Part shown: piece after piece, positions 29,735-36,611 of the stretch
Position numbering within the stretch: the first letter of the stretch is position 1
Layout: the number at the start of each line of letters is the position of its first letter
Source: Verrucomicrobiota bacterium
GTDB lineage: Bacteria; Verrucomicrobiota; Verrucomicrobiia; Methylacidiphilales; JBCBYL01
DNA length: 64,000 nt
Assembly: GCA_038748025.1 (NCBI GenBank)
Contig: JBCDJI010000006.1
Span: forward strand, 2,416 to 66,415
Reading direction: 5' to 3'
Made by a program: the position numbers and the translations under genes
The notes under the pieces: model-generated
The model's database searches: none
What the model was told of the DNA's origin: nothing
The model's input: the letters and a program-made list of their open reading frames with translations, nothing else

Positions 29735-29808
29735 GCCTCCCTAGCTCAGTTGGTTAGAGCAGAAGACTCTTAATCTTTTGGTCCTCGGTTCGAATCCGAG
29801 GGGGGGTA
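29735..29808 (+). tRNA. tRNA-Lys (anticodon CUU)
   Basis: Hand-folded cloverleaf: GCCTCCC/TA/GCTC-AGTTGGTTA-GAGC/A/GAAGA-CTCTTAA-TCTTT/TGGTC/CTCGG-TTCGAAT-CCGAG/GGGGGGT/A. 74 nt; CCA is not encoded. Confidence 0.9.
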
Positions 29809-30938: not shown

Positions 30939-31015
<77 letters not shown>

Positions 31016-31113: not shown

Positions 31114-32934
31114 TCACGAAACAACTTGGCCGGAAGCATCGATCTGGTATTCACCGGTTTCGGAAAATTCATATATTTTTGCGCCTTTATTCTGGATGCG
31201 GTAGCCACGGATGCGGAGATATTCCGGGGTGTCCGGGTGTTTCAGTTCATCTTCGGTCAAAGGAACGATAACAAATCCGTCATTTTCAACCTGCAGATCT
31301 TTGACGGTAACACGTGCGTCCGGACCAGCTTTGATTACCAGGCCCGCACCGTCGGCAATCGATACATTTTCGAGTCGAATCCCAGGACCGTCCAGGATCA
31401 GAGTTCCGGTGCCGTGAATTGAACCAGCCATGATTTTACTGCGCACTTCTGCCAGCGTCATCGCAAAAGAGGGACGCAGCAGCACGCGGGGCCCCGGAGT
31501 TAACGGGATTTCCAGCATTTTTTCTTCGCTGGATGCTTCGACGGTGACGCCCGCAGCGGAAAGCCTTCTGCGACCTGCCTGATAAAAGTCGGATTCCGCA
31601 GTAACGGCCGACTCCGGCGGACCACCGGCAGCATGCTTGGCGGCGGCATCCGATACGTTGTTTTTATTAGCAGAGAAGGCCCATGAGCGGTCAAAGACGG
31701 AGACGCCGATACGGTGTTTGGAATCATAGAGCTTTGCCAGATCCTGCATCATGGTTTCAAGTCGGGTCGGCTTTCTGAAGGTGGTGCGAGTCTGGTCAGC
31801 ATACTTTGGATTAACGAATTCTGCTATGATACCCTGGGTTCGTTCGAGGATTTCAAGGTAAGAGGACAGCTTGATCAGAAGTACGTTAATGTTGCCGGGA
31901 AAGATGGAATTTCCCTGCTCATTGGGCACGTCACCCTCGGGGCTGACGGTGGCACGCAGTAGCGGGTCGAGCTGATTGTATTCGACATTGATGGTCATTT
32001 CTCGTTCATCGGAAACGAGTTTTGCCAGAGCGCCACAGGCTTCACCCGGGATGCGGTTGACAGCGATGGAATTGAAATCATAATCATGTTCCACCGATGC
32101 ACCGAGTGCGGCTGGCACGGCATTAAAGACTTGTCCATTGGTGTCCTGGATGAAAATCAGATGCTGGATACCCTGCTGCGCCAGCTGGGAGGCAATACCG
32201 CTGCTATGCAGCAGCATGTGAATATCTCCGTGACCATGTGGCTTGAGAATCAACTCGTCGTGTGCGTTCAATGCCAGTTTTCCGTCGTTATCGGAGATCG
32301 CAGGTACCAGCTCCTGTTTGAGGATATGAACCTGTTCGGGGTGGAGGCCGAAATACCTGTTGGATTCGAGTGATGCGAGCGTCTTGGCATTGGTATCCTC
32401 GGAGGTCATGACAATGAAAGGGACGGGGTGGGGGTCTTCCATGCGGTCTTCCATTGCCTTCAGGCAGGAGGCATAATGTGCCAGGTAGGAAGTGTTTTCC
32501 GTGACCTCAACCGGGATGTCGAGTTTGATGCCGGAATACCCCAGACGTTCCCCCAGTCCACCTGCAACCAGCACGATGGCGGTTCTATCAAAATGGGTCA
32601 TACCGATGCTTTCATACTGATCGTAGTCGGCATTGAATCGTGTCAGATCAATTTGTTCCGGCTGATGCGGAGTAAATCCGGCAAAGGGGTTCGTGCCGGC
32701 TTTGGCATCGGCCAGCAGTTTGCGAGCGTTCGTTATGTATCCATGGAGACCGCCGGGATAAGAATCATTAATCCGTCCCAGTGAAGCCAGCAAGCCGGCT
32801 TTACGGCTATTCTCAGTGCCAGGTTCATCCCATTGCGAGAAGAGATGTGTCTGGTCGTTTTCCAGCAGTTGTCGGATTATATTCTGTTCGGCGGGGTTGC
32901 TGCTGAATTGCCGCGGGTCCGGATCGTCGCTCAT
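31114..32934 (-). CDS. UDP-sugar pyrophosphorylase (UTP--monosaccharide-1-phosphate uridylyltransferase, UDPGP family, USP-like)
   Basis: VLVAGGLGERLGYSGIKLDIPVE pyrophosphorylase loop and KPHGHGD. The 606-aa length includes a C-terminal beta-helix-like extension, as in plant and kinetoplastid USP. Confidence 0.75.
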   Translation of the reverse strand: MSDDPDPRQFSSNPAEQNIIRQLLENDQTHLFSQWDEPGTENSRKAGLLASLGRINDSYPGGLHGYITNARKLLADAKAGTNPFAGFTPHQPEQIDLTRFNADYDQYESIGMTHFDRTAIVLVAGGLGERLGYSGIKLDIPVEVTENTSYLAHYASCLKAMEDRMEDPHPVPFIVMTSEDTNAKTLASLESNRYFGLHPEQVHILKQELVPAISDNDGKLALNAHDELILKPHGHGDIHMLLHSSGIASQLAQQGIQHLIFIQDTNGQVFNAVPAALGASVEHDYDFNSIAVNRIPGEACGALAKLVSDEREMTINVEYNQLDPLLRATVSPEGDVPNEQGNSIFPGNINVLLIKLSSYLEILERTQGIIAEFVNPKYADQTRTTFRKPTRLETMMQDLAKLYDSKHRIGVSVFDRSWAFSANKNNVSDAAAKHAAGGPPESAVTAESDFYQAGRRRLSAAGVTVEASSEEKMLEIPLTPGPRVLLRPSFAMTLAEVRSKIMAGSIHGTGTLILDGPGIRLENVSIADGAGLVIKAGPDARVTVKDLQVENDGFVIVPLTEDELKHPDTPEYLRIRGYRIQNKGAKIYEFSETGEYQIDASGQVVS

Positions 32935-33194
32935 AAGTTCGGTTGTTACAATTTTGGGTGATTTTTTGATATCGTGACCAGTCTATTGCCGGGAGTCACT
33001 TCTAAAATGCATCCTGCATATGCTGAATACAAACCTGACACGGTATGTTGAACACTAACAGGCTGATTGTATGGGTTTAACGTCTATTATTGCGGGAATG
33101 CGAGTGCGCAATTATCTTGGGACTGTGTCAAGCATCAGCTTGTCAGAAGCATATCACCGAACCGGTAAAATTGAGATGTGGTGTGCTTGCAATA

Positions 33195-33232
33195 CAAAAA
33201 AAGAGCCCCGGACGTTTCCGCCACGGGGCTCT
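33195..33232 (-). terminator. rho-independent terminator (minus strand)
   Basis: Minus strand reads AGAGCCCCG-(13-nt loop)-CGGGGCTCT followed by TTTTTTTG. The stem is 9 bp and GC-rich. Confidence 0.8.
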
Positions 33233-34110
33233 GAAATTTGGGGGTGGGAGTTCGCCACGCTCTCTTTCCCGATCGGCTGACATTGGGCGCTCTTCCATGT
33301 GGAAGGCTGCCAGCTCCCCGACGCTATTCTCCACGGCAAGCGGAGTGTCCGGTCTCATAGCAGGACCGTTCGGACGGTTACCCATCACGAATTTTTGAGT
33401 GAGGCCTCTCGGCTTGGTTCGGTGGCCACCTGCCGGTGGCTCGCTCGCCAAACTGGGAGCAGACGCGCTGTAAAGTGACACGCCTCTGCACCTTTTTTGA
33501 TCAGGTCGGCTACCGCTTGTGGCGGAACGTTGGCCTGATCGGACGGGTCTGGCCTCTTACCTCTCAGGTTGCCCTTGGCTTCACATCAGGCGATCCGGTT
33601 TTTCGGACCCCCCGCACGAGGAGGTTTTGTTCGTCCAGCCTGGGACGAACCCGCTCCCCGATAACCGCTCTCCATTACGTATTTCACCGCGAGGTGAAAC
33701 CTTCGAAGTCTATTCAACTTCAGAGATCGGTTACCGTGCTGGTCGCAGTGGCAACCGCTACCCTCATTCGGGTAACTGCGTATCTTCCGAATTCGAAACA
33801 GATCCGGAAATATGACTCAGACAGCCGCTGTTTCTAGTCGAAAGATCTTACCTTATCGACGCGGCCGACTGCCGAGCCCCTACTTTCGCAGATTGGACGG
33901 GTGCGATCCCATCCAGAGGGACTGGTGAAACATGCCACGCTCAGAAGTTTGACCTTCTCAACGGGAGCCGGGCACCCAGCTTGGCCCGACTATTCCCCGG
34001 TCACCCGGGATTATCCCAGCAATGCTATTCGTTTCCGAATCCACATCACTGTTCTTTCAAAGAACTAGCAAGAATCTATTACCTGGATCAGGTTTTGGCA
34101 AGCAATATTT
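33195..34110 (-). ncRNA. candidate large structured non-coding RNA, family unassigned
   Basis: No protein-like ORF in any frame across 32935-34409. Perfect local helices are dense, including four GNRA-capped hairpins. The terminator sits at the 3' end and an AT-rich promoter-like block lies upstream. See finding. Confidence 0.4.
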
Positions 34111-34116
34111 TTTGTA

Positions 34117-34145
34117 ACTCTATCAGCGACATATATTTAAGTCAA
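34117..34145 (-). promoter_or_regulatory. possible sigma70-like promoter for the 33.2-34.1 kb transcript
   Basis: Minus strand reads TTGACT-17 nt-TAGAGT inside the AT-rich block 34060-34260. It could equally belong to the divergent control region of the histidine kinase gene. Confidence 0.2.
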
Positions 34146-34409
34146 ATATGTGAATAAGTTTTCTGTCTTGGAAACTGATCGACATAAGCGACTTAGCATG
34201 ACAATTCAAAAGATATTCACCAAGTTATTCACCGTTGAAAAAAATTAAGTTTTTTTAGTTTTCATGGCTTGAGCTGGACTGATTCAGCAGAGATTTTCGT
34301 GATTTGGAGCGTTCCCATCCGATTTGCATTAGGGAGCAATGGTCTGCGCGTGTCGGCAAGCCCATATTTGGGCTTTAGTCGATATACGGCTCTGCTAGGC
34401 TGTCTCAGG

Positions 34410-36611
34410 ATGAATTCGGGATCAGTGAAAGCTTGCAGGGTGCTTTGGGTGATGCTGGTCCTCAACGGGCTTTTGGCTTATGGAGTGACCGCAGCATCAC
34501 CTTTGCTTCGGATAGAGGAGGTTCGCAGCCTGCCGCCGGAAGAAGCGCGCAAAGGGTTTCCGGTTCGGATCAATGCCCAGATTTTGCACGTATTTGCCAA
34601 TCAGCAGAGATTGCACATCCATGATGGGAACTACGGTAGTCATGTGATGAAGCTGCCGGGCGGGAAAAAATTTACGGAGTTTCGGCCAGGCGATCTGGTG
34701 CGGGTTATCGGCAAAACCGGGCAAGGGCAGTATTTTCCGATTATTCAACCCACCAGGTTGGTGAAGACTGGAGAGGCGCCACTGCCAGTGGCCAGCAAGT
34801 TTACACGGGATCAGTTTTATGATGTGACGCTGGACGCTGAATGGGTTTCATTACGCGGATTATTGGTCGCCGTTTGGACAGATGCAGGAAGCCGTTCCAT
34901 TATTATGAGAGTGGACTGGGACGGCACTTGGATTCATGCGCAAACGCCATTTTCTGAAGCAGCACTTCAGCGGATAAGGCAGTTTCTGTTCCGTCGCATC
35001 TGGATCAATGCCGTGGTGGGAAGTCTATTCAATCAGCAGCGGCAGTTGACCGGACGATCCTTCTTTGTGCCCAACGTGGAAAACATCCAGCAAGAGCGCA
35101 ATTTTGTTGAAGGTGAGAATGTCATCTCGCGCCCTATCCATGAATTAATGCGGGCAGATATTGGACAAGAACAGATGGTCGAAACGTGGGGTGAAGTTAT
35201 CCATCAACGGAATAATATATTTTATATCCGGGGTGAGGAGGCCGCGTTGCGGGTCATGACCAACAAGCAGGTTGATTTGCAGCGGGGTGATTCGGTTGTG
35301 ATTCAAGGATTATCCTGGCCGCAGCCTGTCAGTCCGGCATTCAGAGCGGTGCAGGTTAATGTGGTCAGCCCAAGTGACGAACCGGAACCGCTGGTGGTTA
35401 AACTCAAGAAGACCATTGATTCACGTTTGAACTACGAGCTGATTCAGCTGGATGCGGTGTTGGTGGATGCTGGCAAGACCTTCGGCTTTTCACCCCAATT
35501 TAATGTCGGCGACGAGCGGCTGACCTTTTTACTGCGGTCCGGGCCGAATCTGCTCCGGGCCTATCTGCCCGCCAGCGAGCTGGACAATGCGATTGTTCCC
35601 GGTGCCAAACTGCGGGTGACGGGCATCTGTCATCTGATTGCCAGCCCGCAAGCGCAGGGAAAGGTCTCGATTCGCGGATTGACACTGAATCTGCGTGATG
35701 CCTCGGATATTCAGGTGCTGGTTCCTGTGCCATGGTGGACGCCCAAGAAAATGCTAGCCATCTTAAGTCTGCTTATCGTTGTGCTGTTGTTGTCACTTAC
35801 CTGGATGGCGTCCTTGCGGCGGCGTGTCAGGGAGCAGACCAGTGTGATCGGTCGGCAGATTGAACGCCAGACCGTAATGGATGAGCGACAGCGCATTGCC
35901 CGCGAATTGCATGATAATCTGGAGCAGGGTCTGGCCGGCATGGCAATCCAGCTTCGCGGTGCCCTGAAACTGTTGCAGCGTCAAGTGGAGCGTCGTTGTC
36001 ATGCCATGGAGCAGACGCTGGATTTAGCGGGTGATCCCGGAAGCGGTTTGAGGAAACATCTGCAGCAGGAGCGTAAAATCATGGCGGATGAAGCGGAACA
36101 GAGTCAGAAGGCGCTGAAAACGGTCCAGGGAATGTTGACGCACTGCAGCGAGGAATCACGGGTGTCTATTATGGACTTGCGCGGAGGTTTGCTGGAAAAG
36201 ATGAGTCTGCCGGAGGCATTGAAAACAGCGCTGACACCGCTGGCGGAAGAGTGCGGTGCGGTGCTGGAGATTATCATTGATGGAGAGGTCAGGAAACTGG
36301 ACAAGCGAGTGGAGCGTAATCTCTTGCTCGTAGCGCGGGAAGCTGCGACTAATGCGGCACGTCATGCCATGCCAAAGCATTTGCAGGTCCGGCTGAGTTA
36401 TCAGCCGGATTCCTTGCGGCTGGAGATTACGGATGACGGCAGTGGATTCAATCCGAAGCAGGCCGGGGAATATGGGCATTTTGGACTGTTAGGTATGCAG
36501 GAACGGGTTAATACGCTGAAGGGCAGGATAAAGATTGAAAGTGATCGAAAAAGCGGCACAACGATACGGGTGGAGCTACCGGACCCGGGAAAACGAAAAG
36601 ACAAGGCATGA
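34410..36611 (+). CDS. sensor histidine kinase (large periplasmic domain, TM, HisKA_3 plus HATPase_c; NarL/LuxR class)
   Basis: Signal/[27 protein letters not shown]. Second [18 protein letters not shown]-box [17 protein letters not shown]. ATPase motifs [17 protein letters not shown] and GLLGMQERV. Confidence 0.85.

Follow-up and report, generated by a model that had tools for sequence, protein, structure and literature searches.

The 64,000-nt stretch of DNA analysed here in full (hereafter the window; Verrucomicrobiota bacterium, assembly GCA_038748025.1, contig JBCDJI010000006.1, positions 2,416 to 66,415) carries on its minus strand a full-length, divergent member of the known Rfam family MISL (RF03079). 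We are highly confident that the locus is a MISL RNA gene, organised as a stand-alone minus-strand unit of ~870 nt with a boxA-like start, the product of which is most likely a folded RNA acting in trans. When the whole window was scanned with cmscan against Rfam 15 at gathering scores, three matches were recovered above threshold: two transfer RNAs (tRNAs) and MISL, the latter at 34016-33247 (minus strand; 501 bits against a gathering score of 274.6, E about 1e-151) and spanning model positions 1-751 of 751. With the cmscan consensus structure mapped onto the window copy, 158 of the 177 consensus pairs were canonical. Since MISL is catalogued in Rfam, the RNA is not a new RNA class; the first-pass annotation, made from the letters alone, had left it in an 'unassigned family', and the Rfam scan that it proposed as a check on novelty returned a confident match, which makes the RNA a known one.

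A permissive cmscan of positions 32900-34450 (both strands, all 4227 Rfam families, E <= 1) retrieved no match to GOLLD, ROOL, OLE, HEARO or raiA, and the earlier suggestion of likeness to the GOLLD, ROOL and OLE class is thus not borne out by covariance models. The same search left RNase P, tmRNA, group I and group II introns and the cobalamin riboswitch unmatched, in agreement with the first reading, which had set aside RNase P, tmRNA, group II introns and the cobalamin riboswitch for want of their hallmarks. A weak match to ctRNA_p42d on the terminator hairpin (33198-33232, minus strand; E 0.04), which at 23 bits falls short of the gathering score of 50, almost certainly reflects a fortuitous likeness of GC-rich hairpins with a U tail. 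We take MISL to stem from the survey of Weinberg et al. 2017 (its name is absent from that main text), which reportedly covered 224 candidate structured RNAs, and we presume its host range to be Verrucomicrobiota, as the homologues sampled here also suggest.

On the minus strand, positions 33195-34066 form a predicted transcription unit of ~870 nt that is non-coding and rich in structure. Folded from its sequence, the minus-strand RNA (34066-33195, 872 nt) reached -377.6 kcal/mol and a z score of -6.1, and its plus-strand complement a z score of -3.35. We regard the span as real and beyond chance because the terminator is seen directly and the minus-strand fold has a z score of -6.1; together with the MISL match, this upholds the large structured non-coding RNA of ~0.87 kb, ending at 33195-33232 on the minus strand, that had been proposed for the region.

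A search with a 24-nt core motif in one genome per species recovered 102 homologous loci (numbered with the prefix L), nearly all labelled Verrucomicrobiota. The hosts include Opitutae, Limisphaerales, Pedosphaera, a metagenome-assembled genome of Akkermansia (L053) and the isolates Limisphaera sp. VF-2 (L036) and Horticoccus sp. (L052). The window RNA was aligned end to end by nhmmer in 83 loci (743-811 nt, median 754 nt), and all of the 19 loci that were re-scanned scored above the Rfam MISL threshold (433-590 bits). In the MAFFT alignment the window copy showed a median identity of ~59% (maximum 62%) to the other 80 sequences, and one of its hairpin loops carried a 21-nt insertion.

No credible gene lies between the UDP-sugar-pyrophosphorylase-like gene (31114-32934, minus strand; Pfam UDPGP) and the HisKA_3 histidine kinase (plus strand, start at 34269 or 34410, end at 36611). 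The longest open reading frames (ORFs) within 32934-34410 measure 133, 112, 102 and 98 aa, none of the four has a Pfam match at E <= 1, and the 112-aa one (33143-33481, minus strand) crosses the terminator, so that the first-pass statement of no convincing ORF between 32934 and 34410 stands. In the homologues the longest ORFs fall on differing strands and positions (median 124 aa, as compared to 109 aa in shuffles), and the column variability of the MISL alignment lacks lag-3 periodicity, decaying smoothly with lag; the coding-potential check that had been called for was thereby answered in favour of a non-coding RNA. The base composition of the locus is like that of coding regions and its Arg/Ser/Pro-rich ORFs reach 100-133 aa, features that would suit a decayed coding gene, or else an RNA that stems from a phage or mobile element, such as a group II intron or a cargo of the GOLLD/ROOL kind. 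We deem this explanation extremely improbable. Conserved ORFs, 3-nt periodicity and Pfam matches are all absent, and the decayed protein-coding gene was rejected on these grounds. Throughout the phylum MISL keeps an end-to-end length of 743-811 nt, neither an intron nor any other Rfam family is matched, and the flanks are ordinary chromosomal genes. A phage link was likewise rejected, as just 2 very small contigs out of 2.9 million viral ones carry the core 24-mer, which is present in 102 species genomes. These two contigs carrying the core motif (L225 and L226, from IMG/VR; 2.4 and 2.2 kb) are, given their size, probably misclassified cellular fragments.

Two further observations concern the distribution of MISL. 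It was also present in records titled Stutzerimonas, Bifidobacterium/Bifidobacteriaceae, Klebsiella, Acidoferrum, Haliangiales, Limnocylindrales and Proteobacteria (L012, L018, L020, L021, L041, L048, L054, L062, L063, L065, L074, L075, L085, L088, L097), six of which scored 433-588 bits when re-scanned; most likely, these contigs are mislabelled or misbinned verrucomicrobial DNA, or contamination. Secondly, a divergent or longer 5' half was seen in some marine and lake lineages (L002, L014, L031, L033, L069, L070, L096); in L031 cmscan assigns 893 nt to MISL, and nhmmer, queried with the window sequence, covered the 3' two-thirds only, which points to lineage-specific insertions in the 5' domain.

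The conserved structure was assessed in 81 sequences with 80-nt flanks, aligned on sequence only (MAFFT L-INS-i), with the structure mapped from the window copy. Across this alignment 82.5% of the Rfam pair cells were canonical, as opposed to roughly 35-45% when the 3' partner was shifted, and double-sided (compensatory) changes were present in 127 of the 173 pairs, the outcome that a covariation check proposed at first pass had been meant to seek. The MISL RNA core (33247..34016, minus strand) is delimited by the RF03079 model and supported by this covariation. Several helices picked out earlier by eye belong to it, namely those at 33996-34009, 33629-33650, 33682-33699 and 33425-33440 and the nested one at 33500-33540. 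Three others exist in the window copy and go no further as family features: CUGC-GAAA-GUAG (33880-33891) is 20% canonical across the homologues, GGUUGCC/GGUAACC is 49% canonical (its GGUUGC pairs with GCAACC at 33572-33567 instead), and GCC-GAGA-GGC (33404-33413) competes with two consensus helices and gains no independent support.

The structure extends beyond the Rfam model on the 5' side (34017..34051, minus strand), where a helix that we term P0 (34051-34044 with 34024-34017) encloses the hairpin AUUCG-GAAA-CGAAU (34040-34027). The latter had been noticed before, and proves to be conserved just outside the model. P0 is 79.8% canonical in the 81 sequences (33-46% with shifted partners), compensatory changes occur in all of its 8 pairs, and the local fold of the extension has a z score of -4.4.

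Covariation also singled out three candidate tertiary pairings on the minus strand. The first, candidate pseudoknot PK1, joins UGUGA (33585-33581) to UUACA (33473-33469), which lies in the hairpin loop of helix 33490-33458; it is 99% canonical (20-48% with shifted partners), occurs with the pair types CG/UA, GC/AU and UA/CG, and is missing from the structure line printed by cmscan. In the second, candidate pseudoknot PK2, the hairpin-loop sequence UGCUA (33362-33358) would pair with UAGCG (33326-33322); here 100% of the pairs are canonical (8-40% when shifted), with double changes at two positions (AU/GC and UA/CG). The third is a candidate long-range pairing of GGUUGC (33756-33751) with GCAACC (33572-33567), 99.4% canonical as compared to 19-49% with shifted partners, in which compensatory changes run from UA to CG in 10 sequences and from CG to UA in 4, and which may tie the 5' and 3' halves of MISL together. 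The window copy and the family share the invariant blocks GAUAAUCCC, CCUGAGAG-UAAGAGGC-AGACCCGU, GCCUCACUC, GCGUCGGG and GGGAAAGAG. Such invariant single-stranded junction blocks would suit tertiary contacts or the binding of a ligand or protein better than antisense pairing.

At the 3' end, the core is followed by a C-rich single-stranded linker (ACUCCCACCCCCAAAUUUC, 33233..33251, minus strand) that is conserved between core and terminator and reads CUCCCAyCCCCC in the homologues. The intrinsic terminator (33195..33232, minus strand) consists of AGAGCCCCG...CGGGGCUCU followed by U7 (33201-33195); its 9-bp GC stem pairs 33232-33224 with 33210-33202 and continues into an inner GGCG-GAAA-CGUC extension. 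The folding energy of the 73-nt 3' segment is -30.6 kcal/mol (z score -3.9). A hairpin occupies the terminator position in 81 of 81 homologues (-22 to -37 kcal/mol), followed in 57 of the 81 by at least 5 T within the next 10 nt, and the stem is 98.3% canonical with compensatory changes in 5 pairs. The terminator that the first-pass annotation had read here (9-bp GC stem plus T7) is therefore seen in the sequence, the fold and the homologues alike; a simple terminator scan missed it, presumably as its inner loop or bulge exceeds the 3-8 nt loop limit.

The linker invites another explanation of MISL, as mainly a base-pairing regulator in which the C-rich tract pairs with G-rich ribosome-binding sites of target mRNAs and the large fold provides a platform for stability or sensing. 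Some Gram-positive small RNAs use seeds rich in C to target Shine-Dalgarno sequences, and the tract in question is conserved, sits directly upstream of the terminator and showed no covarying partner within the molecule in the alignment of 81 sequences. However, ~750 nt of covarying structure with invariant junctions exceeds the needs of a seed carrier, and the tract could be a mere spacer or a protein-binding site; we hold such a regulator to be unlikely.

Upstream of the unit, a sigma-70-type promoter is predicted at 34073..34101 (minus strand) from a consensus scan and from its conserved position in the homologues. It is composed of a -35 TTGCCA (34101-34096), a 17-nt spacer and a -10 TAGATT (34078-34073), and would place the transcription start at about 34066. 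The consensus of 69 anchored homologues has a -35 TTGtcg, a 16-nt spacer and an extended -10 TGnTAagnT, and ~7 nt separate the end of the conserved -10 from the conserved A/G in front of GUUC (CA followed by GUUC). The TTGACT-17-TAGAGT pair previously put forward (34145-34117) is indeed present, as a 9/12 match, but it has no conserved counterpart, and the homologues place the promoter at 34101-34073. Most homologues carry, at about -61 to -43, a direct repeat GTGAAyAA-N3-GTGcAyAA in 11-bp register (e.g., L079:3112-3140) that may bind an activator or serve as an UP-like element; a clear copy is missing at window positions 34130-34102, and the repeat is absent from the ribosomal RNA (rRNA) promoters of the same phylum. 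A promoter common to MISL and rRNA operons was considered and rejected, the promoter regions being unlike.

The predicted 5' end of the RNA is near-invariant among the homologues, GUUC(A/U/C)UUGA(A/U)AG(A/C)AC, and this near-invariance marks out in the window the boxA-like element GUUCUUUGAAAG (34065-34054, minus strand), which lies within a GUUC/GAAC hairpin (34051..34065). In the 738 kb covered by the homologous loci, MISL leaders account for 83 occurrences of the 11-nt core. A further 7 precede MISL copies in which the 5' half is divergent or longer, and the ~4 found elsewhere are about as many as chance would give. A second boxA-like motif ~740 nt upstream in L014 and L031 was dismissed as chance (it lies inside an ORF of the other strand, with no RNA family there). 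Against the boxA consensus GYTCTTTAANA (PMC5725501), which is gamma-proteobacterial, the window element agrees at 9 of the 10 specified positions.

The rRNA test set consisted of 120 metagenomic 16S loci (L105-L224) with the EUB338-III target, and a VER37F-like signature served to mark verrucomicrobial 16S. Altogether 87 of the 120 were usable, in that the 5' end of the 16S could be recognised and the leader measured at least 120 nt. The strict boxA motif was encountered in 25 of the 87 leaders, mostly ~120-170 nt before the 16S start, and its occurrence followed the signature (24 of 52 leaders with the Verrucomicrobia-type signature versus 1 of 35 without). It was also present in 8 of 48 16S-23S spacers (e.g., L136), and was not found in 16S bodies or on reverse strands. 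The forms seen in rRNA leaders, at a fixed distance before the 16S, are GCTCATTGAAAA, GCTCTTTGAAAA, GTTCTTTGAAA(G/T/A) and GTTCATTGAAAG, and in most motif-bearing leaders a small hairpin precedes the motif and UUGAAUUGUGCGA follows it. The order in Verrucomicrobia-type leaders (small hairpin, G(C/T)TC(A/T)TTGAAA(A/G/T), TTGAATTGTGCGA) is boxB-boxA-boxC-like. The MISL 5' element equals the verrucomicrobial rRNA boxA core, without the boxB- and boxC-like context: its 11-nt core G(U/C)UC(A/U)UUGAAA is identical to that of the 16S leaders and spacers, whereas it stands at the extreme (predicted) 5' end instead of after a boxB hairpin, and is embedded in a small hairpin with no UGUGCGA-type boxC behind it.

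By analogy with rRNA operons and with the boxA of CRISPR arrays, we infer that Nus-factor antitermination may act on MISL. A precedent for boxA on long non-coding CRISPR transcripts, where it is thought to block Rho, is given in PMC7862264 (citing Stringer et al. 2020), and MISL resembles both rRNA and CRISPR transcripts in that the element heads a (predicted) long untranslated transcript. That Nus factors make MISL transcription Rho-resistant, and perhaps aid its folding, is a proposal to which we give slightly less than even weight. The motif could instead be a palindromic DNA operator at the start site, bound by a dimeric repressor, or a 5' hairpin protecting the RNA from 5'-end-dependent decay, an alternative that we consider possible if somewhat doubtful. 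It would account for CAGTTCaTTGAAAGAACTG being a 19-bp near-palindrome across the predicted +1, for the GUUC/GAAC stem being 99% canonical, and for the absence after the MISL motif of the boxC-like sequence of rRNA leaders. It fits less well with the changes at mirror positions, which are not complementary (Opitutae have GTTCCTTGATAGAAC), and with those copies that have GCAC for GAAC, in which palindrome and stem are both broken; conservation falls on the left-half sequence plus GAAAG and not on the symmetry. Moreover, the identical 11-nt core in rRNA leaders and spacers of the same phylum is there neither palindromic nor at +1.

Several points weigh against the reading of the locus as a boxA-headed gene for a folded, trans-acting RNA. 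The boxA assignment rests on a motif of 11-12 nt, only about half of the Verrucomicrobia-type rRNA leaders fit the strict pattern (variants outside it include GTTCTTTGACA), MISL lacks the boxC-like UGUGCGA found behind boxA in the rRNA leaders, and the motif is a near-palindrome in a small GUUC/GAAC hairpin, for which an operator or a protective hairpin is possible. The covariation counts derive from a sequence-only MAFFT alignment, in which four helices score poorly; misalignment is the probable cause, and one of these helices reaches 96% canonical when shifted by one column. Finally, a literature search found no published experiments on MISL function, the sole relevant mention being the use of a MISL window as an example in chemical probing.

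The genomic surroundings of MISL vary by lineage. Among the 102 loci no universal neighbour gene was found, the recurrent neighbours are lineage-specific and none of them is common to the window locus. On the upstream side, 26 loci have an M23 peptidase and 20 a SecDF-P1-like lipoprotein; a CysK-type enzyme is encoded downstream on the same strand in 17. In 11 loci the Rho gene follows MISL on its own strand, two to three genes away (e.g., L031:6176-7297), and in 11 Opitutae loci the divergently oriented gene upstream encodes the DEAH helicase HrpB (e.g., L028:1827-4460); both recurrences could be plain synteny. No rRNA genes were found near MISL in the 102 loci. The two tRNA genes recovered by cmscan (29735-29808, plus strand; 30942-31015, minus strand) do lie 2.2-3.5 kb from MISL, as had been pointed out, but the association suggested on that basis was rejected as a family feature, since of about 102 loci only 7 have a tRNA within the same block of ~8 kb, and its identity, strand and side vary. 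MISL is a chromosomal, vertically inherited, stand-alone gene flanked by ordinary chromosomal genes, an organisation that fits an RNA acting in trans.

This variability bears on whether MISL might be a cis-acting leader (riboswitch or attenuator) for the next gene on its strand, here the UDP-sugar-pyrophosphorylase-like gene (32934-31114). Such a gene does begin 260 nt past the terminator, and in 17 other loci a cysteine-synthase-type gene comes next on the same strand. Nevertheless, the downstream genes differ between lineages and the neighbours in the window recur in no other locus; every copy has a very strong terminal hairpin (-22 to -37 kcal/mol) and none gives a hint of an alternative anti-terminator, and the Rfam class of MISL is 'Gene; sRNA', i.e., not cis-regulatory. 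We thus judge a leader function to be very improbable.

We reason that MISL is most likely a stably folded RNA with a function in trans, for which protein scaffold, self-assembling particle and catalytic RNA are the candidates, and that it is unlikely to be an mRNA, a leader or a simple antisense regulator. Its synthesis may be pictured as follows. RNA polymerase would start at about 34066 from TTGCCA-17-TAGATT and transcribe first the boxA-like element, which could recruit NusB/NusE and other Nus factors as it does in rRNA operons; loading of these factors would render elongation of the long untranslated RNA Rho-resistant and possibly help its co-transcriptional folding. The RNA would then adopt ~26 consensus helices, the 5' extension helix and probably the three pseudoknot or long-range pairings, and transcription would end at the conserved intrinsic terminator (33232-33195). 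In its full form, the idea that MISL is made as rRNA is, with a 5' boxA that loads a Nus antitermination complex, escape from Rho and chaperoned folding, is a tentative one that we find less probable than not and that draws on analogy. If true, MISL would be, as far as we could find, the first large orphan bacterial non-coding RNA with rRNA-type antitermination, which would point to a product specific to Verrucomicrobiota (Akkermansia among them), be it an abundant housekeeping ribonucleoprotein or an RNA that self-assembles or is catalytic. Should the boxA link hold, it would offer a handle on MISL expression and a hint of the status of a stable housekeeping RNA. The family was already known, and matters as a large bacterial RNA without known function that occurs phylum-wide; what is added here are the likely transcript ends (about 34066 to about 33195), a conserved promoter and, beyond the printed Rfam structure, a covarying 5' helix, three candidate tertiary pairings and the boxA-like element.

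Compared with the rest of its family, the window copy shares helices, invariant blocks and stand-alone gene organisation with the 102 homologues, and differs in its divergence (identity of at most about 62%), in the 21-nt loop insertion and in lacking a clear upstream GTGAAyAA-N3-GTGcAyAA repeat; with respect to the Rfam MISL model, the unit as read here extends ~50 nt further on the 5' side and ~50 nt further on the 3' side. Among other large bacterial RNAs, MISL is akin to ROOL, GOLLD, OLE, raiA and HEARO in its size class of several hundred nt, in being a stand-alone gene without known family function, and in its many helices with GNRA-type caps combined with long-range pairings or pseudoknots. 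It departs from them in matching none of their covariance models at E <= 1, from the GOLLD and ROOL context in having no phage or tRNA association, and from these large ornate RNAs as a group in being confined, within our sample, to Verrucomicrobiota. ROOL, GOLLD and OLE have recently been shown to form RNA-only homo-oligomers (PMC12286853), and self-assembly is therefore a reasonable idea for MISL as well.

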